Shown: positions 9,337-56,786 of the stretch, piece by piece
Layout: every line of letters begins with the position of its first letter
Numbering within the stretch: the first letter of the stretch is position 1
Origin: Dirinaria sp. TL-2023a
Taxonomy: Eukaryota
DNA length: 59,671 nt
Reading direction: 5' to 3'
Assembly (NCBI GenBank): GCA_051941275.1
Contig: JAVEBF010000010.1
Location: forward strand, 1 to 59,671
Translations under genes and position numbers: made by a program
Notes under the pieces: model-generated
Database searches by the model: none
What the model saw: the letters and a program-made list of their open reading frames with translations, nothing else
What the model was told of the DNA's origin: nothing

Positions 9337-9450
9337 TCAGATGTGGCAACAGAATCTGAGTCCAAATTTGACTGGGAGGAGGGAGCGGGGTTGAGAAATG
9401 GCTCCACAGCATCCAGAATTGACTGCGGAGCATCCAGAACTGACTGCGGA
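9337..9450. promoter_or_regulatory. Cluster of CArG-like dyads upstream of the ferric reductase
   Basis: CCAAATTTGA 9362, CCAGAATTGA 9413, CCAGAACTGA 9434 (CC-N6-GG once the local GG->GA change is reversed); TATA-like TATATAT at ~9311. Confidence 0.5.
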
Positions 9451-9635
9451 ATGAAGTGCTATGACATACACAGTTGCTGCTGTGACTTTCGGAAAGACAG
9501 ACTCCGAACTATATTTCGGACAATGGCTCATTTGCGCTATGGAATTGGCGTGACCTAACAAGTCGAAGATAGGATACAAAGTATGGAGTCGCATAGGAAG
9601 TCAATGAACCACACTGGAAGTAGGAACATTGCGGC

Positions 9636-10853
9636 TTACCACTCCATCGTATAAAATCTGCGCGATGAGACTTGGGTGATTGACACCAACAAGCCGAGGT
9701 CATCCTTCTTCCAATCATGGAGAAAGGCATGCTTCAAAGATTAGGGTTATCGTCATCTGAAGAGGGCAAATTCACTGACCTGCAAAAGCTCTTCTGCGGA
9801 AGCAGACATAATCTTCGATGAGAACTCTTCAGCCGTAGAAGACCAACGACGTAGATCGTTTGCTGCGGCCCCCTCACGCTTTCCCAACAATTGTCTCATA
9901 ATATCTTCGACAGCCTGAACGTCCGAATGCCCCCTTTTGATTTCTTTCGACATGATCGTACAGCGCTCCTGCATACTGATTTTGACCTCACCGTCATCGT
10001 TCAAGAGGACAGATGAGCAGGTGATATCGTCATGAACCAGATCCTTGGACTCGAGGAACTTGATACCGCTCAGCATCTGGGCTCGTCAATGCCGGCGTTT
10101 GGGTGAAATAGACTGAAATTCTATCTGACCGACTATCGATGTCACGTGAGTCTCTTTCGGGTGAACGGGGGCCGCGACGACTTGAATCAGGGAAATTGAC
10201 ATATGTTCAAGAACAACGTAGAGTTCGGCTTCGAATTCGTAAGCATTCGTGCATCTGACGAAATACTCCCCTTGGACCCGAAGGAGCATAGAGAGACTGA
10301 TATTCCTGCTTGAGTCTGAGAGCTTTTTTACCGCGACCACTTCCGAAGCTGAATGACGTTTTGCCACTCCAGAATTCGAACGTTTCTTCTTCGCTACGGT
10401 GACAAGTTCACTGACCCTGAGGTTATAGCCTTCGTCGTACGACCGCCAAGAAGATTCTTTCTTCGTCTTGAAAGATGCCTTTTCGTTCAACTTCTCAGTA
10501 GCGCCGTTTTTTCTAGACGTCCTCTCGGCAGAAGCAGATTGACTGAAAGAATGAAGACCGCTCGGCGGAGATGACTCCGCCTTTCCAGTGTCCTGTTCAA
10601 CGGCAGGTCTTTTAGAAGTTAAACGTTTTCGGTCCGCAGAACTGACGATACGTTCATCACCTTCTTTATCGGGGTATGTTCTATTCCTTTTTGATTTGAC
10701 AGCAATATCGTTATGAGTATTCGACGAGTCTCGGGTGTTTTTAGATGATGAGGGATTGCCACTGACTGATGACACATCATTCGAAACGAGTGAAGGGGCT
10801 TGAGAATGTTTCAAATTAACTTGTGTAAATCGCTTGGTGAAGTGAGAATCCAT
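9636..10853 (-). pseudogene. Degenerate protein kinase-like gene, head-to-head with DUF3723
   Basis: VVAVKKL (subdomain II), LYVVLEHMSISL (V), LSGIKFLESKDLVHDDITCSSVLLNDDGEVKI (VI-VII; no canonical HRD/DFG); Ser-rich N-terminus; the donor near 10124 reads AG|ATAG. Confidence 0.75.
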
Positions 10854-11233
10854 TCTAGATATCGCGCGACGAAGCGTCGTCAGTGACCAACGAAGAATGA
10901 ACAGGAAGGTCGTAAAGCACAGGGACGGAAAGTACGTAGAAAAAGGTGTAGAGAGAATCATTTGAGATACGGCGGAAGATCGATGAACATACTTTTCTAT
11001 TTACAGAGTAGCACAGAGCCATTTGATGATCAAGATGACATCCACTTCTGACGTCTTGGGTCGTCAGTTACGGCGATGTCCTCATCTCTCAAGATGCATT
11101 AGTCACCCCAGTTTCTGACTGACTCGATCCTTCTCAAGTCTGATCGTAAAGTCTCATTGATAATTCCTCAATGTCGAATCTTCTCTTCTGTGAACGGAGG
11201 TGATGATGCTGATCATCAAACGATGCTCTCGTG

Positions 11234-13765
11234 ATGCAACGTACTCGAGTACAAGCTCAGAAAGAAAGTCTGAAGCGAGAGAAGCAGACGAAGTATAAAG
11301 GCTCAGCACGAATCAGACTCGAACATTTTGATTTCTCGAAGAGCGAACCCGACGTGCCCGATAGATCCAATGTGAAGAATTTGATATCAATTTTCGAAAG
11401 AGAAGGTTGCTTTCAGCAAGATAGCAGGCATCACGTGACGGTCGTGATCGACCGCGAACAATTAAACCTTGCTACTCATTCCACTGGTATCTCTTCTACA
11501 GTGTTACTCGACAACACGCAGACCGAACGATCTGAACTACAATTTCCCTCAGAATTTCGGCTTGAATGTCTTCACGGTCGGTGTCGGGTTCAAGCGGGGA
11601 GGGAGATGACCCCTCCCCAGCTTTGATGAACCGTGGATCTGTACCTGGCCGATATGATCGACTGACCTGTAATTGAACAGAACATCTCTCACTCACACCT
11701 CTAGACTTGAGCGACGATCTGAGGACCTACTTGACCGAGCAATTATCTAATGAGAAGAAATCTACCGACGATGAAGCATACCGCAAGATCCGTCAACATT
11801 ACCTCAACCCGCTTACAGCGGCTCGATGATGGGCATGTCTGACAGAGAACAAGCAACAGGAGTTGAGGAGGCTGTTGCGAAGAGAAGACTACGCAGCGGC
11901 TTTCGACGCTCTGTTGCCTTTCCCGAATCTGTGGCCGGACGGAATGCGGTTCGGCGTGACGAAAGCCATGATCGGTTCGAAATGTGATGAGATAGGCCAG
12001 CCCTTCCTATGTATTGTGAGCCTACTAGACTATCAAGCCGCAGGAGATGTTTCATTATCTTGACCACGTCAGGAGATTCTGGACCGACTTAGTTCGACAC
12101 GACAAGCACGATATGCAGAAGGTGGACTATATTACGGTGAAGGCGCTAGAACTTAAAGCATCGGACACGTCGACATCTGACAGCATGACTTTATATCGTC
12201 AACTGAGAAAAGGGGAGATATTCAGCGCATTCAACTTGGACCGTCGCATGAAGATCTGAGCGAAGCTACAGGCGTGGGAGGGTCTCATCCCCACTCTTTG
12301 GACTTTCTTCGAAGACTTCAAGTACCTCCAAGCCTGCGCCTATTGAGTGAAGAGATTGATAAAGATGTCTCCTAGAGGAACTCTGTATACGGCGATGGCG
12401 CGGAGTTTCTCCGAAATGAATCAGAAAAGAGGCAAATGCATTATCCAGAAAGCGGAATCGATCTTCACTTTCAGATCCAACACTACTCAAAACCGCGTGA
12501 CTCTACACTATCGACAAGTGTTTCTCTACATCATGCGACACCTTCGTGAGCTGTCACCAGATTCCACGAAATTGAAGCCCAAACCTAGTGAGAGAAAGAT
12601 TCGAACGACGAAAGATCTCAATAGATCCGTACTGTATGAACTGATCGACTTGACGGAGCGGCTAGGGTTTAAGTCGAAGAAGATCAGCGATTTGAAGACG
12701 AAGAACTCTAGTCATGCAGACGGACGATCATCGTTCGGGCAATCGAAGCCTGCGTACGTCGTCGACGGACCTGAAGAGTGCCAGGAGAGAAGATGTGCAT
12801 GTCCCTTCGACCTGGCGTTTGAGCAGAGCAAGGACTTTCTTTTCCTCGATAACATGTATAATATCGACAAAAGCCAAGGGAGCAGTATTCAACCCGTTTT
12901 CGTGAGGAGGTCCGTTTATCTGACTTACTTTGATAGACGAGTATCTTATTCGGAGCCTGAATTAAATGATCAGAACAGAGAAAACGGCAATCAAGAGCAA
13001 GAACGAGACCTCTCGCGAGAAGACATAGATCAAATATACACACCTCAAGAGCAATCAAACGCGGAGGAAACGCGAGAGGATCGAGATATAAGCGAATGAC
13101 ATGATTATATGAAGCAGCTGAGAGACACGAGTCATCTGTTTGAAAGTTCGCCCCGTTCACAGAGTGTTCAGAGAAATCAGAAACCTCAATCGATGATCGA
13201 CGTCGAAGAGTTAGTAACGTATAATGGCGAGAGAGAACAGGGTTCGATGGCGTCTTCTATAATTTCATCAAGTTTTTATTCAGACGAGATCTTGTCCGAA
13301 GAGAGCCCGCTCGAAGAAAGGGTCTCATTTGAGGAAACTCCTCTTCGGCCAATTGCTTCAGCGCCCATGGAAGCTACGGAAAAGGACGAAACCCTTCAAG
13401 AACGGTTCAAATTCATCTTTCGCGACGGAGACAATTGAATTACAATGAAAGAATACTTTTTCGATTCATCTCTTTCCTCTTCCGTGGAGCTCACGGCAGA
13501 AAAACACGCAAGAGAGAGACGATATCTATTTGACACAGCTCTTTGGTCATTGCACCCCTCGGAATGCTTTGAAGCTGCTATGGCAAATGGCACGCACGTC
13601 ATTCTTCTACTTCCAGCAGAAAGAATTTGTATATCCCAGCAGCTCGCCGCATCTGCTTCCCAATTGGGTGATAACGTCAGATCATTCAAGAATAACACTA
13701 GAAAGAGAGTTGTCAATGATGACATCTCTACGGAAGATCAGACACGAAAGAAACAAGTTCTATAA
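11234..13765 (+). pseudogene. DUF3723-like protein (Starship auxiliary gene), copy 1, inactivated
   Basis: KYKGSARIRL, CLHGRCRVQAG, **TVDLY (WWTVDLY, TGA TGA at 11624-11629), SNEKKSTDDEAYRKIR, AFDALL, YLDHVRRFW, GEIFSAF, IPTLWTFFEDFKYL; several TGA stops and mutated donors. Confidence 0.85.
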
Positions 13766-14123: not shown

Positions 14124-14549
14124 TCAATACTGCATGAATCGTATCACTTCTTCTACCTCTTGAACTCGTTCGTCGAAGTTTGCGATCGGCGGGCCTGAGT
14201 CCTCTGCTAGTCCCTTCAGGCGATTCTCTTCGGCAGCGAGCTTTCTCAACAACATTCCCTGCACCTTCAGCATGCATTCTTTCATGTCCAATGCTTTCAA
14301 GACTTCCGAATTCAAGACAGACAGTTCGTTAAGACGTACGCGCCGCTTCGCCCAATTTTGGACGCGGAGCTCCTTCCCTTTTTGAATTTCCTCATCCTGA
14401 GCAGCCTGCCATTTTCTTCGTGAACGATTCATCTTTCTGTGTTCTGTCGCGAGTCTCGATCCTCTACTTGCGTTGAGCTCAAGATTCGGACGCAGTGGAT
14501 TACCTTGGCATGATGAATGTGATTGCGACGTGCTGATGAATTGTGCCAT
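14124..14549 (-). CDS. Hypothetical small coiled-coil protein
   Basis: 141-aa ORF, charged and heptad-like in its C-terminal half, downstream of a dyad array. Confidence 0.4.
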   Translation of the reverse strand: MAQFISTSQSHSSCQGNPLRPNLELNASRGSRLATEHRKMNRSRRKWQAAQDEEIQKGKELRVQNWAKRRVRLNELSVLNSEVLKALDMKECMLKVQGMLLRKLAAEENRLKGLAEDSGPPIANFDERVQEVEEVIRFMQY

Positions 14550-14689
14550 ATGAGACTTGTAGAAGCAAGTCGCGGATTAGATTTCTGCAGCTTTGGCTCT
14601 GAATACGTATCTCCCAGAGAATCTGTCCGGACTAATCCGTTCCTTGGTAACCTTCGCCTTTTCGTCGTATTTTTCAATCCTTCCTCTCG

Positions 14690-14845
14690 CAGAGCATCCA
14701 ATTTTGGCCCAAGAATCCACTTCTGGACCCTCATTCCATGCTTGCACTTGCGTCCACTTCTGACTCCTAGCATCCATTTCTGAAGCCTCATCCCGTCCTG
14801 ACAATGGCATCCGCTTTTGGCTCCAGCATCCCAGTTCTGATCCAA
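14690..14845. promoter_or_regulatory. Phased array of 8 CArG-like dyads (~19-bp period)
   Basis: CCAATTTTGG 14698, CCACTTCTGG 14717, CCATGCTTGC 14736, CCACTTCTGA 14754, CCATTTCTGA 14774, CCCGTCCTGA 14792, CCGCTTTTGG 14811, CCAGTTCTGA 14831; several are preceded by GCAT. Confidence 0.7.
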
Positions 14846-15176
14846 GGCTGCGGGGAGACTGACGAGGTCCGACTTTGCTTTTCATGCGTGTTTGACTAAC
14901 TTCCATGAACCAATCTCTTGCTGCGAGACGCATAACCTCGCGTAGTCTACGGCAGGGTCGTAAAATTGACTCGAGAGGATATGGATTTGTTTCTTAGGGC
15001 TTCCGGGTGTGCTATATTGTAGAGGAGGGAGAGAGCCGGAATAGAAGGGAGCCAGAATTGGATGAAGTAGGGTACTCTTAAGAGGACTCGTGGGACGACA
15101 ATGATGGAAAGATCGATGAGAGATAAAAACATCATTGACACCATCTTTCAGCCCATTCAATCAGCCTTGAATAAAA

Positions 15177-15908
15177 ATGAAGCAATCAGGCGTTGCAGGC
15201 ACAAAGCGAAAGCCTAGCATGTTGTTTCAGCAACCTCCAATGCTCAAGCCACCACCGCAAATGACTCAAGACCGTGCGAGGGATCTCCCGCGCACTCCCT
15301 ACCTCATGCCGAGTAAGGGTTGTAAACGATCTGTCTCATTCAACGAACAAGACGATTCTCCGCAGAGAGAAGAGGCAAAGAAACTCAAGATTATTGAAGA
15401 GAAAGGCATTCAGAGCATGTCACCTGATCTGATCAGCTTTCCCGCACTCGAGTCTCGGTATCCTTCTGCTAATCAGCATCGTGTCATTCCTTCAGTGGAA
15501 TTAATGAAAGCATGAGAATTGATTCTTGACCAAGTTGACTGGTCCAAAGTGGTCCAGAAGGCAGGATGAAGAGAAAACCTCAACATCTATCGAGATGTCT
15601 TTAAAACGATTGTGCATTCCCACATTAAGGATCTGCTGAAACAAGAAGAATACGGGAAAGACATGAAGATCGAATTGAATAAACGAGATGATGAGGATAC
15701 CGATACCGAGAGTGGGAATGATAGCAGTGAGGAGGGTGGCGGGGATGGCTTTCGATATTTTGAGGATAACACTTTTTTGGAGAGCGATGAGAGCGGGTGT
15801 GGGAGCGAAGATTATACGGATGACGAAACTGATGATGAGGAAGACAGCGACGATGAGGATCAAGTAGATGATGATTCTGAGGTAATTGATGATTGGGTGT
15901 CGATCTAG
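15177..15908 (+). pseudogene. Hypothetical protein with very acidic C-terminal tail, interrupted by TGA
   Basis: ORFs 15177-15515 and 15612-15908 are in the same frame, joined through TGA stops; D/E-rich tail. Confidence 0.45.
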
Positions 15909-16149
15909 TCAGTTGAAGGACGTTAATTGTTTGGCCTTTCGAAGAATGATAACCTTAGGTTGTTTAAATAGTTGCCTCTCCACCAATGATACATATATCT
16001 ACTTGTACATGAAAATTCTCAGATTTTACACTTCACTGACCAGCTGTAGAGCCATCATCACCCATTCGGCATCAGCATTTCTGTCACGTAGTGGCCCGCG
16101 CGGGGATGGAGACTCGAGTTGGAGCACAGGTAGTTGGGATGAGCAACTC

Positions 16150-16262
16150 CCCAATCCTCTTCTAGCTCCTCCAGTTCAGTTCTGGCTCCATCGCTCCGTT
16201 TTTGGCTCCCCGCTCCAAATCTGGCTCCTCGATATCAGTAACGGCTCTGCTCCGAAAGTTAA
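16150..16262. promoter_or_regulatory. Phased array of CArG-like dyads (~20-bp period), each followed by CTCC/CTCT
   Basis: TCAGTTCTGG 16176, CCGTTTTTGG 16196, CCAAATCTGG 16215, TCAGTAACGG 16235. Confidence 0.65.
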
Positions 16263-24017: not shown

Positions 24018-25169
24018 GTGGAAGAACACGCTTCACTCTGGCGCCGGCTGTGCGGGCGGAGAAGGGGATCCATTGCTTATTTTCGAAACTAGAATGTGAC
24101 GTTTAGACTGCTGAGGGAATTGAGACGGAGGCAAAGATGGGTGGACATGACGAGTTGTATTTCTTGCTGTAATGATTGCTTGTCCATCTCAGCTGCTTAT
24201 ATGGTCAAATTTCAATCGATTCGCTTCTTCTTTGACTAGTGTCTGTAACTTCGTCGTCTTTACTGCAAGTATCATTTGACTTGTTCAGCTCAGTGATCAA
24301 TTCGAGATTATTCAATTTTCATTTTTCGATCACTGTGCTAAAGCAGCTCTCGGGACTAGAGAAATTCTGCTTAGTCCATCAGTCAAGACTGAGCAATGAA
24401 AAGTACATTTTATTATAGCTCCTCGTCTTTCCTTGAGCAGTTCCCCCTTGGCGGCGTTGCTTGATTCAGGTGCCAGGGCTGCTTCAAATGATATACCAAC
24501 TTCTCGAAACAATTCTCTGTAAGCCCGGATGGAATGCTTGATAAGGAGTTAATGTTTCTCTAGAAATATCTGCCAAGTATACGGATCATCAGTATTTGTG
24601 ATCAGATATCTCTGCTGGAGATTCCCAGCCTGGTTAATTCAAGAATTCATTAACAGTTGGCATTCTCCGCCGAATAGCTAAATCGTATAGATGTGCCCGG
24701 ACAACTGCCGGCGGCACTTCTTCCTGTAAATCGCACGAATTGAGTTATTCGATCGAAGTGTGGCCATTTGGCTAGCGCTTCACATACGCAGAAAAGATAT
24801 ACGGATCATAACGCAGGCAAATTAAGATAGCAGATCCGACACTCGATCTGAATGCCCAGATGAAGCCTATTTGTACCAAAAGAACTTACCAGCTCCAGGA
24901 ATGACATCCGCTCCAACTCTGACTCCTTGCTCCAATTCCGGCACCTTTGTCGCCTTACAGAGCGCTTGCGTGAACGAAGCTTAGATAAGGGAGTCAGAAG
25001 TGAATGCTGAGAGTAAGAACTGAATGCTAATGCGGAAGAATGAGGCGTAGCAACAAGATTCAAGAACAAGAACTTTTCATCACATGACTAGACAAGAGAG
25101 AAGTACTGATACGTGATATACACTATCAGCCGTGGTGCTTATGCGTAGAGTCTTCGAAGTGCTAAAGGG

Positions 25170-37472: not shown

Positions 37473-37987
37473 CATTTTCAAATTTTTGGGGAAGTAAACG
37501 TTGAACTTCGTACAGAAATGGAGCAAACCCGTTGCCTTAATATACTCACGGTCCAGACGACTCCTGGCTTCCATAGATCCACAATTGGCTCCCCAAAGGC
37601 GGTAGGTGGTTTTTGGATGCTCAATGAGGGAGTCAGAGTAGGATCCCTCGTTAGCGAGTCTCCAGTTTTTGCAATTTCACGCGGAATAGACTTTGCAATG
37701 CAAGACGGGTTTCTGGTCAAAAGTTCCAAGGGTGGTGTAATAACACTATGACCGCGTGATACTCGTGTAACAGGCTCATGTTTTGTAAAGGAAATATGGA
37801 TCCGATTTCCAAGTGCTTTCGATATATAATGTATTGAATTGAAGCTCTATCTAAGCCAGATGGCGACTATATATTGCCGTCGGTCATAAAACCCAGATGT
37901 ACCTCGCTATGATACGGTTCGTAATAGAGGCGTATGTCGCTCAAGTTGATAGGAGCAGCTACAATACTCTGCATGAAAATGATTTGC

Positions 37988-40819: not shown

Positions 40820-40910
40820 ACGGAGCATGCAGCAAAAGTGGAGCAGAAGGGAGCCAAGATTGGATGCAGAGGAAGCTGGAGCTCGAGGGAACAACAACCG
40901 GAGCTCAATA
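40820..40910. promoter_or_regulatory. CArG-like dyad cluster upstream of the OSCA gene
   Basis: GGAGCCAAGATTGGATGC at 40850-40867, plus several GGAGC half-sites. Confidence 0.5.
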
Positions 40911-41024
40911 TGAAAGCCTCAAAATTGGTTTTCCTCCACCGAACACTGCGCGAACAAGACCTGGAAAGAAAACTCAAACCGCTGGTCTAACGGAATATCT
41001 CGTCCAGTTCGCATATCAACGACA

Positions 41025-43738
41025 ATGACATCCCCACTTGACAGTGCTGGCACTGCGCTCTACGCTTCACCAGAAGTAGCACGACACGCCCAAGGGCTCT
41101 CGCTCCGAAATTTCCTGGCGTCACTCGCCACGTCGGCGGTCGTGTTTGCCACCGAAGTCTGCGTGTTTGTCCTTCTGAAGGATAGATTCAAACAAATCTA
41201 GTAAGTCCTGATCATCCTTCAAGCGCGAAGATACTGAGTGGGCGTGCCAGTCAACCTCGAACTTATCTCGTGCCTGAAGGACAACGCACCATTCAACATC
41301 CTTCCGGCACCGTATCCTGGATCCCATATATGTTCCAGCTTCCCGATAAGATCATCTTACAACATTCTGGCTTAGACGCTTTTTTCTTCCTTCGATATAT
41401 TCGCACTCTCCTCACCATCTTCACCAGCCTATCGGTCGTCGTTATACCTTGCCTTGTTCCCCTGAACCTACTCGGTGGTAATGACGCTGCAGATGGAACC
41501 CACGGTCTCGATAGATACAGCTGGGCAAATATCGGGCTCGATCACACAGCATTCTACTGGGCCCATTTGGCGATAGCTCTGCTTGTGATCGTATTCATAT
41601 GTTACACTGTTTACGTAGAACTACTTTTTTACGTTCACGTCCGTAATTCTTACCTAGCGTCACCTGCGCATCGTCTCTTGGAGTCTGCCAACACGATTCT
41701 GGTGACCGATATTCCCGAGAAAGACCTTCTGGTATTGGAGGATGTGTACGGTATATTCCCTGGTGGAGTCCATTCCGTCTGGATCAATCGAGATCTCTCG
41801 GCGTTGTTGAAGAAGATTCAAGAGCGAAAAACCCTCGCCACCACGCTAGAAGCCGCGGAGACCAGCCTTATAACATCGGCAACAAAGTCGTTCCGTCAAC
41901 GTAAGAGCCACGAGCTTCCACCACCGAGTGGGGCGGATACCGAGAAGGAAGGACCATTGTGGAAGCGCTACCTGAAGGAGAAGGACCGTGACCACATGTA
42001 CATTCCACGACAAGGATGCAGCTGGATACCAGGAATGCCTTTCATCGGAAAAAGGGTTGATACCATCCACCACTGCTTAGGCGAGCTGGCACGAATGAAC
42101 AAAGATATCAGGGCAGAACTAACGGAGCTGGCTGAGCTCGAGTCGAATGGAAGAGAATCAAGCAAGTATCCACGAATGAGATCCGCCTTTGTACGATTCA
42201 ACGCTCAATCTGCCGCGTATATGGCCTGTCAAACCCTCCTGAACGCCAATCCTCTGCACTCATCCGCCCGACACATCAACGTTTCCGTGCGGGAAATAAG
42301 ATGGAGCACTCTAAATCAACGATGGTGGAATCGATATATACGGAGTGGATTGGTGTGGATCGCCATCGTTTCTCTCCTCATAACGTGGGCGATACCCGTC
42401 GCATTTACGGGTTTTCTGTCCCAAATTACTACCCTCGGAGACTCCGTATCGTGGCTTCACTGGATATCTGGCGCTCCGGCGTGGCTGGGTGGGATTATTC
42501 AAGGTGTGCTGCCGCAGTTGATGTTGGTAGCATTGAACGTATTGCTGCCGTTGGTCCTGCGTATTATCACGGGGTGGCAAGGTCTGTCAACGGAGACGAC
42601 AGTCGAGCTGTCCCTGCAGAATTACTATTTCATCTTTCTCTTCGCACAAAATTTTCTCACGGTGTCGCTTTCATCCAGTATTACGGCCATCGCTCAAGAC
42701 CTCCTCCGTGGCCCGAGCTCTGCACCCGCATTGCTGGCCAGAAACCTTCCCAAGGCGAGCAACTATTTTTTCTCCTACCTCACTTTACAAGGGCTTTCGG
42801 TAAGTGCAGGTGCCTTCCTGCAAGCCGGAGGTTTAATTAACTGGCTTATTCTCGCCCCGTGGACGGATCGCACACCGAGACAGAAGTGGGAGAGACAGAC
42901 GGGTTTACCGGAGATTCGATGGGGTACATTCTACCCTCTTTACACGAACCTCGCATGTATTGGTAAGACGCTCGCATCTTTGCCGACGCCTTTGCTGAAC
43001 AATTTAGGTCTGACGTACTCCATCATCGCTCCCCTGATACTCCCGTTTAGCGTCGCCACTTTCAGCTTGTTTTGGTTCGTATTCCGCTACAACCTGCTCT
43101 ACGTGTCGGCTTTTCCGTACGATACCGGAGGTCAACTTTATCCGACTGCTTTGAAGCAACTCTTTACAGGCGTGTATATGATGGAATTATGCCTGATAGG
43201 CCTTTTCCTGTCTATTCGCGATGATCAGGGTGTCTTTACCGGCATTGGTCAGGCCGTGGTTATGATGATTGCCACAACATTGACGGTCATTTACCAACTG
43301 CTTCTAGGAACAACCTTCTCCTCAATCCTCAAATATCTGCCTGCCTTCCCGAAAGACAGGGAGGATGAAGGAGGAGAATCGAATTGGAATCACTCCTTAG
43401 CACCTGCGCTCGATCATTTACGACACCTAGGGCACACCTGCTATAGCTGGATGGGACCTTCCAAGGAAGTCCCCCAAGATCTCCAAGAAAGTGTTGACGA
43501 GCTCGCACGCAACGAACTCGACGAAACAGATTGGCGTGGGTATAAACATGAGGCTGCTGACTATCGCAGCCCTGTCGTCTGGATTCCAAAGGACGACCTT
43601 GGAATCAGCGAAGATGAGATCGCCCACGCCAAAAACTACGCTTCAGATATCAGAATCAGCAATGAGTTTGCAGAGCTTAATATCAAAGGGCGCTTGACGA
43701 TTTCGCAGAATATTTCTGACACTGATATCATGCAATAG
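41025..43738 (+). CDS. CSC1/OSCA/TMEM63 (DUF221, RSN1-like) calcium-permeable stress-gated channel
   Basis: N-terminal TM, intron 41201-41250, QPRTYL, GLDAFFFLRY, SAFVRF, LPKASNYFFSY, YDTGGQLYP, PVVWIPKDDLGISEDE; many TM helices; intact. Confidence 0.95.
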
Positions 43739-44301
43739 ATCAGGTCTGAAGCTGTTTTGCTTTTCTCGGCCAGCGTTTACGGCTGGCCTATGGAGCACCT
43801 TGAGAGCCACGTCTATGGTTGAATCTCTGAACAGCGTGGGTGTAGAGTGTTGGGTTAGCGATTATGCATTTCACAGCCTTGCTTACACCGGCTTTACGGT
43901 GAAAATAGCAACCCTTGGCCACCTCTGACATTCTGCTTGTATTTTAATTTCAGCCTCTATTTTGAACAACCGGTCAACCTGATTACCATTTCTCATTGGC
44001 GGTTCATGTAGTCCGGACCGTTTCGCCTTCTTCACTTTCCCCTAGGCTTCTCGCTGCAGGATGAGCAAATCGATAGTGTCAAATTACGCTAACGACAAGT
44101 ACAGGACAAGGGTTCGTTTTTGGATGCTGCTATTCGAAAGAGGCCCCTGTTATGGATGCTCATGTCTGGAGCCGATTGTGGATGCTACCGCACATTTAGA
44201 TCATAAATCGACATGGCATAGACTCTTGGTCTGCCGAAATTGTTTGGAGACGTTCGGATTCTCTCAGGAAAGGACCATTTACAGACATCTCAACATCTAC
44301 A

Positions 44302-47721: not shown

Positions 47722-48120
47722 CCCTCTCTATTGATAGCAATCTTAGCAGTCAGATTCCCTGCATCCAGAGAGAAAGATCAATGTGGCCAAGCTTCCCGTG
47801 AGCGATTTGCAAGAGCCAAACCACCTAGTCCCGGAGAAGAAGGATTTTGCGACTAAGACCTAGATGTTCCAAGAGCAAGCGATTCTCAAGTCATTTAGGA
47901 TAGAAGCCCTGCCACGTTGAAGGAATCGCATCCGAATTTGGCTCCCGTCCAGATGTGGCTCTTGACTCTGATTTCAAAAGCCCCATCTCTTCCTGTTTCA
48001 ATGTGTCATTAGGTTGTTTATTGAAATTTTGTAATGAATCACGGAGATCTTATATCTAATTTTTAAGTTTTCAGAATCAGTGTCTAATGTTGATACATAC
48101 ACTGGAGTGGAAACGTAGGC

Positions 48121-48987
48121 ATGACTGTGGAGTTGTCCAAGTTCAGGAGGGTGTTCCAGGACATACCTGAATGTCGAACCATACTCATACGCTGCCTCTC
48201 GGGCGCCAATTTGTTCGCACTGCGGAGGGCGGTCGGCTTCTGGCTATCGGAAAGGGAAAAGAGAGCACATCTGAGCTTGCTATGGGACGTGTTCGAGCAC
48301 ATGAAATGGAGTGAGGGCATGGGAGGAGTCACCATGATGGGACGAGGCCTTGATTTCCGCCGAGTTGAAGCACTCATGCGAGAATCTGCTACCATGCACT
48401 GGAAAAAGGTGGTCCCTTTCATAATCATGATTCGGCCACCTTTCGATTATGAGAATCTCGTCCCCTGGACCAAGCAGGCCTTGTTGAGTATAACGCGTTC
48501 TACTAGAATGACGGTCACGGAAGCGGCTGAACGTCCAAACTTTTGGGATACGACGCCCATTGCCACCATTCAAGGGCTCGCAGCTGGTGTTGAGATATCC
48601 ATTCCAATTACGACTTTGGCACAAGAGGCACCTCAAAGCCAGCTAGGTCATGCTACCATCGACAGAGCTGCTGCCATATCTATTTTTCAGCCTGTGCTTA
48701 ACGATGCTACTCGGATCGCAATCGTGAAAGTAGAATTGGACTCTGTTAGATACGAGACGGGTAATGTCGCCGCCTACAAGACTAACGATACTTTCAGCAT
48801 ATGCATGTTTGGACCTCAGTACATGACCAATGTCTCACTTATACACAAAACACCTTCAGAAGGACCAAGATGCGATTGGCCTGATAGCCCTCAGGTTGTC
48901 ACACGAGTGATCAATATCTACTCACCTGCAGAGCCAGATTCGATTCATGCTGCTTGGCAAAGGAGGAATGCACTTCAAGGGTGGTAA
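48121..48987 (+). CDS. Hypothetical protein (288 aa)
   Basis: Intact ORF preceded by dyads CCGAATTTGG (47932) and CCAGATGTGG (47949). Confidence 0.6.
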   Translation: MTVELSKFRRVFQDIPECRTILIRCLSGANLFALRRAVGFWLSEREKRAHLSLLWDVFEHMKWSEGMGGVTMMGRGLDFRRVEALMRESATMHWKKVVPFIIMIRPPFDYENLVPWTKQALLSITRSTRMTVTEAAERPNFWDTTPIATIQGLAAGVEISIPITTLAQEAPQSQLGHATIDRAAAISIFQPVLNDATRIAIVKVELDSVRYETGNVAAYKTNDTFSICMFGPQYMTNVSLIHKTPSEGPRCDWPDSPQVVTRVINIYSPAEPDSIHAAWQRRNALQGW

Positions 48988-49189: not shown

Positions 49190-49520
49190 CCCTGCTCCAA
49201 TTCTGACGCCCTGCTCCAGTCCTGGCTCCCCTGCTTCAACTCAGGAACCTTGCTCTTCAATTTTGGCACAGCGCATTGGAGCGGTTCACTGCCTGATTCC
49301 GCCTGTCCTAGGAAGTTTGTCCTAGGAAATTTCTCCTGGGCCGAAGAGGCATTCAGGATGAGCCGGTATTGGGTCAGCGGTGTTAATGGTCCTGGGAGGA
49401 TCGGCTCAGGACAGATCCCCTAGGACAAATGGCGCTCCAACCAGCCAATTCTGGCACCTAGCTCCAATTCTGACCCCCTTATGAATGAGCCAGTATTGGA
49501 TCAGTTGATTCAATGGTATT
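49190..49520. promoter_or_regulatory. Two groups of CArG-like dyads upstream of DUF3723 copy 2
   Basis: CCAATTCTGA 49197, CCAGTCCTGG 49216, TCAACTCAGG 49236, TCAATTTTGG 49257, CCGGTATTGG 49363, CCAATTCTGG 49445, CCAATTCTGA 49464, CCAGTATTGG 49490. Confidence 0.65.
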
Positions 49521-49619
49521 TAAAGCTCTTGGAACAATGGACTTAGGAGACATTCCCCAGGGAACACGGTGGCAGAGTCCCTTCTACTCTGATCCTTAAT
49601 CGCATCGAATTATTTCGGC

Positions 49620-52600
49620 ATGGAAGAGTACGCCAACGAAGGGAAACCCTCTGACGGTGAGGTCTATAGGAAGATACGCAACTATCGGTCCCAGAAGCAG
49701 TCCAGTTTGGAAATGCGATGGTGGACTCTTCTCTCTGCACATAGAGCCAGAAATTTAAAACAACTGTTCCGGCACAGGGAGTTCACCCTTGCCTTTGATG
49801 CTTTCTTGGAGATACCTGCGCTCTTAACTGGGATGAGAATTAGTACCTTACATAAAATTTTCGCGCTTAGATGCGATGAGGTAAACGCTCCGTCGCCGAC
49901 CATATGAATGCGCTCATCGATTGCTAGGAAATCATACATTACCTTCAATACACCAAGCAATTCTGGTCTGACCTGCTTCAGCAAGATAAGACCGCGATGG
50001 CCAAGGTAGACCAAGCCACCGTGGAAGCGTTACAGTTCACCGCGCCATGGGCATCAACACTAGATGCCCAAAATCTACGTGGTAAAATGTTGGGCGGGGA
50101 AATCTTTGGCAATTTTAGTCAACATGAACGCGAGGGGATCTGGATTAGGCTACAGTCCTTTAAAGGCCTGGTTCCTTCTCTGTTCGAGTTCTTTGAGAAC
50201 GCTAAATGCCTTGAGGCATGGGCCGACTGTGTAAAATGGCTGGTATGCCTAGGTCCTCGGGAAACGCTGTCCACGGCAATGAAGAAGATCTATACTGGTA
50301 TAAATCAGAGCGTAGACTCGGCTCTGGTGCAGGAAAATGAGACCACGTTCGAGTCTATGCCAGCAAACTCCACTCGTCGAATTGACCTAGGATATCGACA
50401 ACTACACGCCTTTGCTATGCGTTACCACTGCGAAATCCCCAAAAAGCCCAGCGGGAAGGATCTTTTGGCAAAGCCAAGGGCCAGGTTAAACACAATCAGG
50501 TTGCGCCAGATGGCTGATCTTGCCAATCGTTTGGGGTTCGAGTCGTCCGAGATCACTGCCTTAACGCAGTTTCCAAAGTCAACAGACCCAATGATAGTAA
50601 GAGGAAATGAAAAGCCTGCGATAGTCACGGATGGTCCAGGGGAGATTAGAAAAGACAGATGTGGAATGCCACATACTCAAAATTACGAAGAGGACCGCAA
50701 ATTTCTGTTCATCACACATTTACATGACGGTAGGGATGAACAATCCGAGGGGATCACGTCCTACTTCAGGCTAAGATCCACGTACTTAAAGTTCTATGGG
50801 ATGCCGGACGGCTCCAATCCACAACAGAATCTCACTACAGCGACAGGAGAATTATTACCCCCAGCTTTCCGTCTGACTCGGTCGACTGATTCGCCAAGAG
50901 AAGATCAGGCTGAGCATATGGAGGTTGACGAGGAACCAACAGAAGACACAGTGATGCAGGATGGAGAGGGAGAAGGAGAGGGAGAGGAACAAAGACCTCC
51001 ATTCCAAGCAGAAGGTGCTTTTGCACAAGAACCAACGATACAGCGACAAAAGCTCTTGTCTGAAGCAGGCGTGCTTGGAAAAAAGGAGTATGAGCAAGAG
51101 CAATATCGGCAGAAGCTTGTGGAGGACGCGAATTCTCTCGTGGAAGAGGATCAAAGGCTGGAACAAAAACGACAAAAGCTCTTGTCCGACGCAAGCACAC
51201 TTGAAAAACAGGAGCAAGAGCAAGAACTTCATCGGCAGCAACTCGTACGGGATGCAAGTACAATCAGAGAACAAGAGCAGGAGCAAGGGCAGCGACGACA
51301 AAAGCTCTTGTCTTATACAAACATACTTGAAAAGCAAGGACAAGAACAAGAGCAGTACCTGCAGAAGCTTTTAAGAGATACAAGCGCGTTCGGAGAACAG
51401 GATCAGGAAAAGGAACAACAACGACAAAAACTCTTGTCCGATGTAAGCACGCTTGAAAAGCAAGAGCAAGAGCAAGAGCAATACCAGCAGAGGCTTATAA
51501 GGGACGCAATCGCACTCAAAGAACAAGAGCAAGAACAAGAGCGACGAAGACAAAAGCTCATCTTAGACGAAAGCGCGCTAAAAGAAGGCGATCAAGAGCA
51601 AGAACAGATGTGTCAAAAGCTTACGAGGGACGCCAGTGCCCTTAGAGAGCAAGAGCAAAAGCGAGAGGAACAACGTCAAACTCTTGCGAGGGAAGAAAAA
51701 GAGCTATTGAATCGAAAACAAAGGCAGGAGGAACAACAAGAAACACTTGAAGCGGACGCAAGCAAGCTAATTTTACAAGAGGAAAAGCAGGAGGAACGAA
51801 GAAACACTCTCGCAGCCGTGGCGGATGAGCTCGTGAACCAAGAGCAAAGGCAAAAAGAACAGCGACAAAAGCTTGCGGAGTACGCAAGCGATCTTCAGAA
51901 ACAAGAACTGAGGCAAAAAGAACAACGAAAAATGCTTACGACAGACACTAGCGAGCTGCACAAACAAGAGAAACGCCTTAAGAAGTTAAAGAAGGATAAA
52001 TTAAAGCAGAAACGAGAGCAAAAGAGCGTAGAGCCAAAGATATTAGGGAGTAAGCTAGATGAGTCAGGGACAATTCAGGAGCGAGATGAGCGAGACGTGG
52101 CGGAGCTACAAAGACAAGGTCAAGAAGAACTGGCAGATCTTGAACTGCCCTCTCCCTTAAAGCTCGAGTATGGAGGAATAGATGCCGGTCGAAGTGTACC
52201 TGAAGTACGAGCGCAGAACTATTCAATGGACGCAGTCCAGAAAGGTGGCACTAAAGTGAGTGTTTCAGCACCCAAAGGTCAAAACAGTCCGGCACAAGAG
52301 CACGGACTACAACGAAATAGAGCACAAGTGAAGGGCCAAGAGGAGAGGCTAACAGAGGAAGCCCATGAGCCTGAGGCTCAAGAGAGGGGCCAAACGCAAG
52401 AGAACGAGCAAGAAGATAGAGCCCACGAGGATGAAGCATATGAGGATACAGCACACAATGATAAGGTCCAACGCGGTAGGCAAGCGGACGAAGCCCAAGA
52501 GGTTATGCAGGAGGATAAGGCACATGGGAAAGGGCAAGATGGTGGTGCGCAAGAGGATGAAGTACGAGAGTATCGACAAAGGAAGCGCCGAGTGATGACT

Positions 52601-52747
52601 GAAGAGAGTGACGATGGTGCAGTACTTCGAGCACAACAGGTACGGGAAGGGCGAAAACCTGTGGAAAAGGGCAAGTATCAACGGCTTAATAGATTTGGGT
52701 TATCGAACTATAATACGAACGAGGAAGATGGAGTGTCAACGGGATAA
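49620..52747 (+). CDS. DUF3723-like protein copy 2 with long repetitive coiled-coil C-terminus
   Basis: EEYANEGKPSDGEVYRKIR, MRWW, AFDAFL, intron 49881-49927, HYLQYTKQFW, GEIFGNF, VPSLFEFFEN, DLGYRQL, RCGMP; uninterrupted frame. Confidence 0.88.
51040..51960 (+). repeat. Coding tandem repeat, ~60-bp (~20-aa) units
   Basis: Recurrent QRQKLLSDASTLEKQEQEQE-type units (cgacaaaagctcttgtc repeated), about 15 degenerate copies. Confidence 0.85.
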
Positions 52748-53316
52748 CACTGAAGAGAGGGTGTCTACTATCATACCAAGGAAGAGGCAGCCAAGGCAGG
52801 GTCTGCAGGCACAGAAAAGGGCTGGAGCAATATCGGCCCAAAACACGGACGGTTCAACGGGGCTTACTTCTGAGTTTACTTATAAAGCCCCACAAGCGCC
52901 ATCTCGCACTACATAATTTGCAATCTCAAATGGGATGGGACATGTTGTGAATCTTCTTAATATCTATACCGCAAATACCTCGCGATCACGCCTTTGATGA
53001 CTGTCTATTCTCAGCTGTAAATGAGCAGACTGCAATACCCGATCAACTCTCCAGCTACTCCGAAAAAGCAAAGGGACATGCTCAACATATCCGGGTATAG
53101 CCAAAATCGTGCAATTTGTAGTAAACAAGGAGGCTTATTGTATTGATTTCAAATGTTATTCGCTTGAACTGAAATATATCGATTGCGAAAGACGACTATC
53201 TAGATGCAAGAGATGGCATGAACATACTAACTCTTTCTTCGGACGTTTCAACGCTGCTGCCCCGCAGCTCGCCGATTTTCTCCTTCCGCGTAGTTTCAAC
53301 CCTTTGATCCTTTTCG

Positions 53317-53813
53317 CTACTGCGGCTGCATATACACCATCGGTGGCTGCTGCTCCGGAGCAACGTGATTCCCGTCTTTCTCTTCCGCCTTCACCTCCTT
53401 ATCCTCCTGTACTAGGGCGCAGCAACCACAAAACCCGGAAATAAGGCAGTCGGTGCAGCCGTTACCCTTGATGCCATATTGGTGACGCAACTTGCTCCGG
53501 CTGATCATTTGGCTTATCCATTGAAATTGGCAAAGTGAGAGGGTGCACCAGCCCATACACTTAAAGCAGGAGTTAGAAGGGTATGATTCGTAAAGTGTAA
53601 GAAAATGAAACATACACTGCCGTTACAACACGAGGCTTCGGGGTCGCCATCCCTACGAGCCTGTGTTTTACCATAAAGAATACACGGGCACCAGGTAGCG
53701 AGGCAGCCTAATGTTTCCATGTTAGAGTACTATATTTTCGATAAAGTTAGGGTCTCACATATGCCGATAGGATCGAAGCAGCCAAATAGCTTAAAGTTCC
53801 ATGACCTCGACAT
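53317..53813 (-). CDS. PLAC8-family Cys-rich protein
   Basis: MSRSWNFKLFGCFD | CLATWCPCILYGKT | RSKLRHQYGIKGNGCTDCLISGFCGCCALVQEDKE; three exons. Confidence 0.9.
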
Positions 53814-53939
53814 TGCTAATACTTCGATAGATATTGCTTTAATATTCACGGAAAACAAAACACTTAAAATATTTAGAGATTCAAAAGCCAAATACAGTCA
53901 AACGAGAGAGCGGTCAGATATATAGATCCAGCATATGTC

Positions 53940-54075
53940 TCAATTTTCTAGCTTCCACTCTCCAGTTCTGGCTTCTCGCTCCAATTCTGGCTCCCGTGCT
54001 TCAGAAATGGCTCCTTTATTCGAGAACCGGCTCCATGGTGTTCAACAGGGCTCTCTGCTCCAAAACTTGATCCCT
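53940..54075. promoter_or_regulatory. Phased array of CArG-like dyads (~20-bp period) upstream of PLAC8
   Basis: CCAGTTCTGG 53962, CCAATTCTGG 53981, TCAGAAATGG 54001, CGAGAACCGG 54021, TTCAACAGGG 54041, each followed by CT(C/T)(C/T); TATATA at ~53919. Confidence 0.7.
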
Positions 54076-54317
54076 TGCTCTAAGCCCCACACTTGGTTAC
54101 GTACCGGTCATTGAGCCCCGGTGCACCCAGACCAAGTCTAATTGGAATCTCTGACATTCCGTGCAACTGGCTGGCTATAATATTGCGTACCAGAGATATA
54201 TGTAGAAGTCATGAGCCAACGACGACATCGAAGATAATACTTAGGTTAGCCAAATCTTTACTTTCACCTAGCGTCAACGATTTGGCTTCTAGTTCGTTAA
54301 GTCCTTTCAATTGTAGT

Positions 54318-55055
54318 TTAAGCCGTTCTGATAGCTTGTTGACTTAAATCATCGGCGTATGCTGGAGGAGGATCGTAGATCCTGTGCTCTATTGCAAGGC
54401 AGTAAGCCATGGCAATCCAGTGATAGCCGGTAGGTTTTAATTTTTTCAAAAATTTGAGGGCATTGAGCCGGTGGAATGGACTTTCGTGGTCGTAAGTCAC
54501 GAATGGAAGATCTAGCGGCATGACGTTTGCCAACCCGACAATCATTTTTATGATCTCGGAGCGACAGTGTTCGCGGCGCGATATCTTCTCTCGTAACGCA
54601 GCCAACCGAAGACAGCCCTCATTTGAAGCAGCATCCAGAGGGGAGGTTGCTCGACTAAGATAAAAGGTAATCTCTGACATAATTTCGGTCTGTCTCCCTA
54701 TGTACGCAGCGCGGCTGTCACGCATCCAGGCAAAATCTGATGTGGTGATGGAGTAAAGGACGAAGACCTCCAGAACGGTGCGAATATATGAAAACTCATC
54801 CTCGCTTTCGGCAACGCATATCTTCGTTGTAAGGAGCGTAATGGTGGAGGCGAAGGTCTCCCGACCGGAGATAGAAAGCTCTTGCAACATGCTTTGCAGT
54901 TAATTAACATTCTTGTCTTGCTGGTGCAGTAACATTGCAATCGATGGATCGGTCAATATGGAGCGCCATTTGTCCACGCTTTTGTCCTTACGCAGGAAAG
55001 AAGGCCAAATCTGTCGGAATGCAGACATGGTCCGAGCTGTCTTTTTTGACTTCAT
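54318..55055 (-). pseudogene. Hypothetical protein with an in-frame TAA
   Basis: MKSKKTARTM…QDKNVN*LQSMLQELS… continues into the 190-aa ORF; dyads TCATTTCTGG (55187) and TCATTTTTGG (55213) lie upstream. Confidence 0.4.
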
Positions 55056-56040
55056 TGTAAGAGTGCTCTTATACCTGAAGATTGGTCAGTATATAACTAA
55101 TTCTAGCACTATTCGTACAGTGATCTTTTGGTGATGTCTCTTTCATATATTGATCCCTATATAAGAACTCCAACTTTCTGAGAGGGTCATTTCTGGAGCA
55201 CTCGTGTAAAAGTCATTTTTGGAGCACTGTCGAGAGTCGTGCGTACGTCGTTGATCGAGGTTGCCTTGGCAGATGATTTGCTGAAAAAAGCCAGAACTGG
55301 ATGCTCGATGGTGTTGCTCTCGCTTTCATATTATGCCCTGATTTTCTCTCACTTCGTCTTTCTCAAGTCCTTAAGAATTGCAACAGATTTCCGCCTCCAC
55401 CTCTCCTGCCCCTCCTTTGTCAAATATATGCGTTAATTCCACAGAACGGGTTAAAATATACTATTGGGGTGACTCAGGACACACAATAAGACATGAACTG
55501 ATTCCATTGCTATAGACGTGTGCGTAAACAAGAATGATCTCTACCAATACAACCCCATACCTCAGCCGTCAAAAAATCCAAACCCCAACCCTCATGCCGA
55601 TACCGTGACAATCAAATGACCGATCAAAACCCCAGTCCAATCGAATGCTAATCTGACTTATGGAAGGATCTCTCTGAAGTATATGGAGGAGCTCTTTCGT
55701 TTATTTGGGCAGCCACATTGAAAATTGCTTCCTCACTTCCCCGAATAGGCAGATCCGTAGGAGCGACATCGAGTGGCGATGGTTGAGACGGCTTATCGGA
55801 AAGCATGTCGTAGTCGTCACAAAGGTGTGGGAATTTGCGGCGCAGCCATCTGCTCAACGGACTTTTGAAAGGCTGGGGAGGGCGTCGGTTGTAAGGCCTT
55901 GGTCGAAAAATAATAAGGCACATGTTTCTTGAGTCAGCTTCACTATTATCTCAATCAACAGCTGTGACACCATTGCTATTATGAGCGAGACTTGCTAAAA
56001 TATATACCGAATCTCCCAGTCCTCATGTACTAATCATGGG

Positions 56041-56135
56041 TGCCGCCATTTCTGGATGCCGCTAGTTGTGGATGCCTCAAGCTGTGGATGTTGCCAATTC
56101 TGGATGCCGCCAGTTGTGGATGCCGCCATCTGGTT
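56041..56135. promoter_or_regulatory. 16-bp tandem array of CArG-like dyads immediately upstream of the MADS-box gene
   Basis: CCATTTCTGG 56046, CTAGTTGTGG 56062, CAAGCTGTGG 56078, CCAATTCTGG 56094, CCAGTTGTGG 56110, each followed by ATG(C/T). Confidence 0.75.
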
Positions 56136-56267
56136 CACCTTTTAATAATGCAGCCAATTCCGAAGTGCTTGACAATAGTCCTTAACTATTGCATATCAAA
56201 CCATCCTAGAGACATTGCACGAGTTTATCGACTTCCTTACCAGAAAGAGCAACAGTATTCAACAAGC

Positions 56268-56786
56268 ATGGCGATAGTGAAGAGTGAACGGCTTCTTCGA
56301 GAAAAGCTTCGCAAGCGGAGGACAAATCTGTTCAAGAAAGCGAACGAGTTAGCGCGGATGACCAACTCGAAAATATACGTAGTCGTTCAGCATGACGACA
56401 AATATTATACATATAAATCAACGGAAGAATTGAACTGGCCACCTCCCGAAAGAGAAATTGTGAGTACGTCTGATCTATTACAGTCAGACCATTACTAAGG
56501 ATGACAGGGGATACACGACCACAAGTACCATAGACGTCCTGCAGATTTTCACGGTCTTAAACCACAGGAGACTCAGAGGATGCGAAAAGCCAGTCAGCAT
56601 GATAAAGGCCAAGTCGGCTTCAAGTTTCCGAAGGAGGCGGAACACAATGGAGATCGCGCCCTTGCTAGCAGACGTACCTTGACTGCAGCCCAGAATAAGT
56701 CCGTACTACGAGGAGGGTTGGAAGGTATGAAATTCCCAATGATAATGTGGCTGGGCTATATAATAGGCTTGCAACGGGGAGGTTGA
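56268..56786 (+). CDS. Small MADS-box (SRF-type domain) transcription factor
   Basis: REKLRKRRTNLFKKANELARMTNSKIYVVVQHDDKYYTY…WPP matches the MADS consensus KRxxxLFKKAxEL; intron 56460-56507 joins in frame to ORF 56580-56786. Confidence 0.88.

Follow-up and report, generated by a model that had tools for sequence, protein, structure and literature searches.

The window analysed here is an entire contig of 59,671 bp (JAVEBF010000010.1) from the lichen fungus Dirinaria sp. TL-2023a. It contains auxiliary genes of a Starship-like element, and an 18-bp dyad recurs in it in short phased arrays, which are located upstream of several genes, including that of a small MADS-like protein. The arrays are very probably cis-regulatory elements. 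In the following, we describe the genes and arrays, their placement and their fate in related loci, and discuss which protein may read them.

Genes and dyad arrays of the contig

The gene map was obtained by a Pfam scan of the 429 six-frame open reading frames (ORFs) of at least 55 amino acids. It comprises the following genes:

5.4–6.5 kb, plus strand: 2OG-oxygenase (Pfam)
7966..9228, minus strand: ferric reductase, FRE (Pfam Ferric_reduct, FAD_binding_8, NAD_binding_6), ATG at 9228–9226; the lower bound, 7966, delimits the Pfam-supported part only
9.8–11.0 kb, minus strand: kinase-like gene (Pfam)
11.2–13.1 kb, plus strand: DUF3723 copy 1, fragmented (Pfam)
14124..14549, minus strand: ORF14124, 141 amino acids, start at 14549 (ORF)
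25.3–26.3 kb, minus strand: DUF7514 (Pfam)
34919–35992, plus strand: ORF with an SsdA_C-like deaminase domain (Pfam, E 1.7e-10)
39.3–39.9 kb, minus strand: ankyrin (Pfam)
41026..43738, plus strand: OSCA/RSN1-type channel (Pfam RSN1_7TM, E 4.6e-83, and other domains), ATG at 41026, first intron at about 41202–41250
45.0–46.5 kb, plus strand: SIR2 (Pfam)
48121..48987, plus strand: ORF48121, 288 amino acids, conserved in related loci (ORF)
49621..52747, plus strand: DUF3723 copy 2, an intact long ORF (Pfam, E 4.7e-70), ATG at 49621
53320..53813, minus strand: PLAC8-family gene with two introns (Pfam PLAC8), ATG at 53813–53811
54321..54890, minus strand: ORF54321, 190 amino acids, conserved in related loci (ORF)
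56268..56786, plus strand: small MADS-like gene (Pfam SRF-TF), ATG at 56268, exon 1 at 56268–56459
56900..58500, minus strand: DUF7924, decayed and convergent with the MADS-like gene, relic at 57367–57531 (Pfam and related loci)

For ORF54321, ORF48121 and ORF14124, no Pfam family was found at E ≤ 1 beyond chance-level rows, and ORF54321 had no usable match in the protein atlas.

A study on lichen Starships (PMC13486527) gives DUF3723, FRE, PLP and NLR as Starship auxiliary genes. In the window, Pfam detects DUF3723 twice and FRE once, while PLP and NLR were not seen. The many diverged, hypermutated copies per assembly and a shared boundary (see below) are further likenesses to Starships. The captain gene, a DUF3435 tyrosine recombinase that comes first at one end of a Starship, was found neither among the 429 ORFs of the window nor among 128 ORFs of at least 130 amino acids from nine related loci; the contig may simply not extend to it. 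As to the ends of an element, a shared homology boundary about 2.65 kb past the MADS ATG was seen. The description as Starship-like, given in the initial annotation, fits the auxiliary genes, with the contig a putative part of a Starship.

The dyad emerged from a k-mer count made without any prior motif. GCATCCA/AGCATCCA ranks first among the 7- and 8-mers (23 against 8.0 expected, and 15 against 2.8), and CAATTCTG, CAGAACTG and CAGAATTGG also rank high. Viewed in context, the top k-mers are the arms and the core of one 18-bp dyad. The sequence CCARTTYTGG occurs in 8 copies where 0.38 are expected, a number reached in none of 100 shuffles; for CCARWWYTGGMTSC with at most one mismatch there are 27 matches against 0.74 expected and a shuffle maximum of 4. 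The window and 60 dinucleotide shuffles were put through the same procedure, in which a symmetric position weight matrix (PWM) is trained on its own hits. It finds 26 sites of at least 15 bits in the window against 1.35 ± 1.3 in the shuffles (maximum 5), and 55 sites of at least 9 bits against 24.5 ± 5.6 (maximum 40). Of neighbouring pairs 14–23 bp apart, the window has 15 and the shuffles 0.15 (maximum 1).

At a threshold of 12 bits, 43 sites remain, in good agreement with the roughly 40 copies counted by eye in the initial annotation, and all of its ten intergenic clusters were recovered by the PWM scan. The regular spacing noted there is likewise confirmed, the distances being 16, 17, 19, 20 and 21 bp and sums of these. 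Aligned in one orientation, the 43 sites follow the pattern G-[GC]-[AC]-[TG]-C-C-A-[AG]-T-T-[CT]-T-G-[GA]-[CA]-T-[CG]-C, with a CC-N6-GG core and arms GCWYCC/GGRWGC. The arms are symmetric but the centre is not, with TT at positions 9–10 in 36 and 38 of the 43 oriented sites; in this point the dyad of the initial annotation is corrected. Heat-shock, CreA, RFX, NFI and TEA-type sites were judged poor fits. For the dyad 10-mers, a literature search gave primer lists only.

The arrays and clusters are:

9358..9447: FRE array of four dyads (spacing 30, 21 and 21 bp), 41–130 bp distal to TATATA (about 9317–9311)
14694..14824: ORF14124 array of five dyads (19, 37, 20 and 37 bp), 154–267 bp upstream of the start; one of its sites, CCAATTTTGG at 14698, is a perfect box
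15048..15065: one isolated dyad, strong at 20.2 bits, with TATATT upstream of it
16172..16228: array of three dyads (20 and 19 bp); candidate targets are minus-strand ORFs at 15504–15954
24909..25007: array of three sites, 3' of the minus-strand DUF7514 gene
32420–32459: weak cluster (PWM scan)
37575..37646: two sites of 18.4 and 12.2 bits (PWM scan)
40828..40930: OSCA cluster, 96–198 bp upstream of the ATG, with a strong dyad at 40850–40867 (17.5 bits) and degenerate neighbours seen by eye
44110..44185: three sites (32 and 26 bp) upstream of the SIR2-domain region, inside a 123-residue ORF of doubtful reality
47928..47962: ORF48121 array of two overlapping dyads (17 bp), 167–184 bp upstream; kept in the related loci L010 and L029
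49193..49503: arrays of DUF3723 copy 2 (6 sites by PWM), a distal 19-bp array at 49193–49229 and proximal sites at 49359–49503, upstream of TATTTAAAG (49518) and of the ATG at 49621
53958..54073: PLAC8 array of four to six dyads (19, 20 and 59 bp), 33–150 bp distal to TATATAT (about 53925–53918); kept in L010 and L031
55183..55304: a site at 55183, a weak one at 55209 and one of 16.3 bits at 55287, between the divergently transcribed ORF54321 and MADS-like genes
56042..56167: MADS array with 16-bp phase, unit GCCGCCANTTNTGGAT (5.8 copies by TRF, 5 PWM sites), 101–226 bp upstream of the ATG; TAATAAT (56141) follows

Four of these, at 24909–25007, 32420–32459 (weak), 37575–37646 and 44110–44185, lie beyond the ten clusters known before. 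An array similar to that at 24.9 kb is found in related locus L031 (14872–14967), where it adjoins a homologous piece.

A second word, (T)CCTAGGA(A), is repeated at 49290–49345 and 49415–49435, separating the two dyad arrays, distal and proximal, of DUF3723 copy 2. It has a 14-bp phase (TRF, 49304–49337), occurs at the same places in L003, L007, L010 and L029, and may be a second cis-element of this promoter.

Promoter placement and turnover in related loci

None of the 43 sites falls into Pfam-supported coding DNA, although such DNA makes up 24.4% of the window (chance of none, 6e-6). The positions relative to genes were determined from start codons read from the sequence (9228, 41026, 48121, 49621, 53813, 56268 and 14549). 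In seven of eight cases, FRE, OSCA, ORF48121, DUF3723, PLAC8, MADS and ORF14124, the site centres lie 126–267 bp upstream of the start; the first six of these genes had already been named as having a cluster upstream. In the eighth case, ORF54321, the site centre is 406 bp from the start. For FRE, PLAC8 and DUF3723, the arrays are 15–330 bp distal to a clear TATA box. With respect to their genes, the sites occur in both orientations, as upstream activating sequences or operators would.

A blastn comparison of the window with itself revealed no dispersed repeat connecting the arrays and no flanking homology between them, so that the short word is all that they have in common. An origin of the arrays from a transposon or miniature inverted-repeat transposable element is thereby ruled out. 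No RNA run was found to contain the locus. Contigs from four sequencing runs, one of them guessed to be RNA, give unspliced cover over intergenic DNA and an intron and are therefore uninformative on transcription or start sites.

Relatives of the locus were taken from metagenomes as 38 loci, for which DNA was fetched around relatives of the MADS-like protein. Mutual blastn comparison sorts them into about 13 insertion groups, several per assembly. They share 72–90% identity with positions 45.6–58.8 kb of the window and the gene order SIR2/C48, ORF48121, DUF3723, (PLAC8), ORF54321, MADS, DUF7924; in L030, FRE, the kinase gene, DUF3723 copy 1 and ORF14124 are joined to the MADS region instead. 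Between groups, homology ends about 2.65 kb past the MADS ATG, just after an intact DUF7924 gene of about 470 codons, and the conserved block ends about 0.5 kb beyond DUF7924. This gene is intact (about 470 amino acids) in L001, L005, L014 and L031 and decayed in the window.

DUF7924 (in L001 at 10687–12114, minus strand) is the last gene before the block boundary and convergent with the MADS-like gene. In the protein atlas, a lead to PD-(D/E)XK nucleases stays below the threshold (0.89). No relative was found in the PDB by sequence. A literature search for ‘DUF7924’ returned one unrelated pangenome paper only.

The MADS-promoter array is present with at least two sites of at least 10 bits in 31 of the 38 loci, and all 38 have at least three TGRATR relics; the number of units varies between loci. 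The distal DUF3723 array has 2 units in the window and in L010, 5–6 in L007, 6–7 in L003 and 12 in L029, where the inner units are nearly identical. Slippage or unequal exchange is therefore part of the history of the arrays. The PLAC8 and FRE promoter arrays persist in L010, L031 and L030 though the surrounding DNA is unalignable, and individual units differ there in sequence and orientation, which indicates site turnover under retention. In all, the promoters of DUF3723, PLAC8, ORF48121 and FRE retain arrays while units are gained, lost or replaced. An ORF14124 homologue in L030 (66% amino acid identity) has degenerate units upstream. The earlier view that the arrays are selected binding sites rather than products of simple slippage has to be qualified in view of the gain and loss of units, from 2 to 12.

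C-to-T hypermutation differs between copies, as seen in an alignment of window positions 55968–56270 with 12 loci. In L004, 17 of 20 C-to-T changes are at a C before C, and in L027 22 of 38. In L014, 9 of 10 are at a C before A, resembling repeat-induced point mutation. The CpC-type changes convert every TGGATG of the array to TGAATG, while the frame of the MADS exon in L004 stays open. In some copies, CpC hypermutation erases all CC/GG cores of the arrays, and a single mutational process would thus silence a whole putative circuit at once. A candidate source of the CpC signature is a cytosine deaminase borne by the element itself: SsdA_C, the domain of the plus-strand ORF at 34919–35992, stands for single-strand DNA deaminase toxin A, C-terminal.

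Three further repeats were noted. Positions 1–137 of the window form a near-perfect self-hairpin (97.8% reverse-complement identity), probably an assembly artefact of the contig end. Between the 2OG-oxygenase gene and FRE (6921–7207), 54-bp units are arranged in tandem with a higher-order period of 143 bp (94% matches); they show no relation to the dyads. The coding sequence of DUF3723 includes, at 51160–51559, a 126-bp (42-codon) repeat of 3.2 copies, which is rich in AGCAAG/AAGAAC and encodes a Q/E/K-rich protein repeat.

The small MADS-like protein

The presence of a MADS gene at 56268, proposed from the sequence, was confirmed by profile, fold and conservation. The protein, here called P0007 (Q9191_000237 of Dirinaria sp. 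TL-2023a), has 142 amino acids in the model of the source. It matches Pfam SRF-TF (PF00319) with 33 bits (cut-off 26, E 4e-8) over profile positions 12–48 of 48. SRF-TF is the sole transcription-factor domain among the 429 ORFs, and no Zn2Cys6 pattern was found in the six frames of the window. The AlphaFold2 model consists of a long helix (residues 2–32) and two strands (37–42 and 45–50), with pLDDT above 90 over residues 11–60. In a Foldseek search against the PDB, ranks 1–45 are all MADS domains (MEF2, SRF, SEP3, Mcm1), with a root-mean-square deviation of 1.2–1.4 Å over 48 residues and a best E-value of just 0.022.

The model of the P0007 homodimer reaches an ipSAE of 0.72, compared with 0.00 for the best control, with a run agreement of at least 92% and a partner pLDDT of at least 82. 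This mark is reached by 21 of 30 solved homodimers and by none of 23 solved monomers. As solved MADS dimers exist and the model may remember them, the result shows likeness only.

Among eight intact copies (28 non-independent pairs), mean dN is 0.031 and mean dS 0.213; the resulting dN/dS of 0.15 indicates that, as judged from sequence, the protein is under purifying selection. The contact helix SERLLREKLRKRRTNLFKKANELARM is nearly invariant among the copies. Close homologues share 86–95% identity, and their machine-called ORFs extend into the translated upstream array. A HMMER pass over 1.84 billion representatives yielded 297 clusters (50% identity) at E ≤ 1e-3. Most of them have 60–200 amino acids and the signature R..REKFRKR..NL.KKA.EL..VYVV..YYTY.ST..WPP..IV. 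SRF-TF is matched by 48 of 50 small MADS-like relatives. The only named members of the clade in the profile search are from Lepraria finkii and two Botrytis species. By profile and fold, P0007 is a member of the MADS superfamily, in a divergent clade of small proteins.

Candidate readers of the arrays

The explanation that we favour assigns the arrays to upstream regulatory sequences, each composed of 1–12 phased 18-bp dyads just distal to the core promoter. The targets would be the auxiliary block of a Starship-like element, comprising FRE, DUF3723, ORF48121, PLAC8, ORF54321 and the MADS-like gene, and outside the block OSCA, ORF14124 and perhaps SIR2. A dimeric factor would occupy the sites, and the phasing of 16 or 19–21 bp would permit cooperative loading. 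The most likely factor would be the small MADS-like protein of the block itself, which would regulate its own gene through its array and switch the block on and off as a unit. That the sites are bound at all, and the sign of any regulation, we infer. The assignment to the MADS-like protein is a tentative one, in which our confidence is slightly short of even.

Three points favour the MADS link. The footprint of a MADS dimer has a CC-N6-GG core, an A/T-rich middle and a dyad of 16–18 bp, and the sites fit this geometry; apart from SRF-TF, no transcription-factor domain was found in the window; and in every locus fetched the gene accompanies the block, with an array in its own promoter. Compared with SRF and Mcm1 at their CArG or P-box sites, likenesses are found on both sides: P0007 has the helix-strand-strand core and is modelled as a symmetric dimer, and the sites have the core, the A/T-rich middle and a dyad length of about 16–18 bp. 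The differences also concern both partners. In most sites, core position 4 or 7 is occupied by G or C; P0007 is tiny (142 amino acids), belongs to a separate clade (REKFRKR..KKA.EL..VYVV..YYTY.ST..WPP), and its segment before the contact helix is shorter than that of MEF2.

A number of observations weigh against this explanation. The first group concerns the sites. Perfect CC(A/T)6GG boxes occur at chance level in the window (4 where 2.49 are expected, with at least as many in 22 of 100 shuffles), and only two of the four, at 14352 and 14698, belong to the dyad family. Most sites are non-canonical CArG boxes, G or C being frequent at positions 8 and 11 (R and Y in the consensus). Of the CArG identity proposed initially, the perfect box at 14698 stands. 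Further, in the alignment of the loci the array and the entire MADS promoter show about equal conservation, so that no separate footprint emerges.

The second group concerns coverage. The arrays had been called element-wide, which is an overstatement. They are dense at 9.3–16.3 kb and 40.8–56.2 kb, whereas 17–40 kb contains only three small clusters (24.9, 32.4 and 37.6 kb), none assignable to a promoter, that at 24.9 kb being 3' of its neighbouring gene, DUF7514. Promoter arrays are present at FRE, DUF3723 copy 2, ORF48121, PLAC8, ORF54321, MADS, OSCA and ORF14124. In the PWM scan, none was found at the 2OG-oxygenase gene or at the DUF7924 gene, and the divergent promoter of the kinase gene and DUF3723 copy 1 has one 11.8-bit site but no array. 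From 56.2 kb to the boundary at about 58.9 kb, that is, over the last 2.7 kb or so, there is no array either, nor in the matching part of the loci. In L001 and L004, no array was found in the 9 kb upstream of the ORF54321–MADS pair, where dynamin-like, DUF7587 and bZIP genes are located. In view of these gaps, the putative targets make up a defined subset of the genes, with the conserved block at its centre.

The third group concerns the protein. The N-terminal arm is not of canonical length, residue 6 of P0007 aligning to residue 12 of the MEF2D chain. P0007 starts with MAIVKSE and thus has A and I where its relative P0025 (MGRVKIE, directly before the REKFRKRR helix) has G and R. In sequence, P0007 matches solved MADS proteins weakly (E 0.15). 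With such a divergent N-terminus, the DNA specificity of P0007 cannot be read from SRF or Mcm1. In addition, all loci of one group (group L, L031–L036) have an in-frame deletion of 15 residues (RKRRTNLFKKANELA) in MADS exon 1, which removes the centre of the DNA-contact helix; array relics are nevertheless kept. Exon 1 is stop-free in three of the six loci, and the protein could be provided in trans by further copies of the same genome.

Whether the word belongs to the block or to promoters in general was judged from one representative locus per group, with the outer parts of the same loci as the only control DNA. The block side has 4.3 strong sites per 10 kb (63 in 147.5 kb); the DNA beyond the boundary, with 0.53 per 10 kb (5 in 94.3 kb), is about 8-fold poorer. 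Since the window served to train the PWM and is homologous to the block sides, the conclusion from this contrast is limited to the word being no general promoter element; a confinement to the element does not follow from it. Three of the five outer sites form one array beside a piece homologous to the window at 25.5 kb. The outer DNA carries ordinary genes (kinase, Na/H exchanger, AAA, IBR). Gene and arrays are linked in every locus fetched, a co-occurrence biased by the fact that the loci were found through the MADS gene.

These data bear on the strongest alternative, a host factor, which we consider unlikely, but which deserves serious attention. The arrays would then be read by a host MADS protein of the Mcm1 type or by another dimer, for example a zinc-cluster protein accepting TCC-N6-GGA. 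The block would be plugged into a host programme, and the resident MADS-like protein would be a target, modulator or competitor. All evidence on the cis-elements fits this alternative equally well, and both the departure of the resident N-terminus from canonical MADS proteins and the array relics of group L, with its deleted contact helix, would be readily accommodated. The near-chance occurrence of the motif in 94.3 kb of neighbouring DNA with ordinary genes speaks against a host factor, although a modest host regulon would be missing from such a flank as well. So do the array carried by the MADS gene of the block in every fetched locus (all of them found via that gene) and the lack of enrichment of perfect CArG boxes, the preference of canonical SRF and Mcm1.

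Binding by another protein of the block, DUF3723, ORF54321, ORF48121 or DUF7924, is improbable. It could serve regulation or, alternatively, chromatin marking, escape from silencing or copy control. Four conserved block genes are without known function, and the phased 16–21 bp direct repeats have the form of plasmid iterons or of the subterminal transposase-binding repeats of En/Spm- and Ac-type transposons and, like these, would bind a protein of the element. Unlike those repeats, which are at an origin or at element ends, the arrays are located at promoters over 47 kb. Their absence from the last 2.7 kb or so before the conserved boundary also argues against the iteron or mobility function that had been offered as an alternative in the initial annotation. 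Moreover, Pfam gives no DNA-binding domain for any of the four candidates, and the CC-N6-GG geometry suits the one DNA-binding fold that is present. More improbable still are functionless minisatellites, spread or repeatedly arisen by slippage: the change from 2 to 12 units between homologous copies, the recent tandem duplication evident from the near-identical inner units of L029 and the MADS-promoter array, conserved no better than its surroundings, would fit them, but the same dyad occurs at 12 or more places without flanking homology, in both orientations, never in Pfam-supported coding DNA and always about equally far from start codons, and in diverged copies the FRE and PLAC8 promoters show it replaced, not lost.

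Taken together, the evidence supports the regulon reading in part: that the auxiliary block shares a promoter code is well founded, and the resident MADS-like protein as its reader is an attractive suggestion. Secondary-metabolite clusters of fungi provide a comparable arrangement, as AflR is a cluster factor with palindromic sites. As in such clusters, the gene of the factor would lie inside its putative target block, with a palindromic site in many promoters of the block and in its own. The present block differs in that it consists of auxiliary genes of a mobile element with many copies per genome rather than of a biosynthetic pathway, that the sites form phased tandem arrays, and that the candidate factor is MADS-like and not a zinc-cluster protein.

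The same gene set, kinase, DUF3723, MADS and freB, has appeared in RNA data. In Aspergillus fumigatus A1163, a Ser/Thr kinase, DUF3723, a MADS-box factor and freB of the Starship Logos h1 are reported to rise together in a nutrient study (bioRxiv 10.1101/2024.06.28.601215); the preprint offers no mechanism and describes no sites. MADS is among the domains screened in elements of Aspergillus oryzae, according to PMC13562431. In PMC13486527, a term search found neither ‘MADS’ nor ‘motif’. Full-text literature searches on Starships, MADS and DUF3723 found no description of shared cis-elements or of a role of MADS, in line with the earlier statement that no such system was known from Starship-like elements. 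The combination of phased arrays and a dedicated clade of small MADS proteins on a giant mobile element would be new.

We consider it possible, with rather more doubt than confidence, that Starship-type giant transposons of Pezizomycotina carry a private circuit in which a small MADS-like clade binds phased CArG-like dyad arrays at the auxiliary genes and at its own gene. If so, the co-induction of kinase, DUF3723, MADS and freB in Logos would be the same circuit seen in RNA. Two handles are at hand, an 18-bp word for genome scans and a protein of 142 residues. With a portable promoter code and a resident factor, Starship auxiliary genes would for the first time have a proposed regulatory logic. 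The shared code would explain continued co-expression after horizontal transfer, and with a private circuit the element would switch on its maintenance genes as a unit in any host genome.

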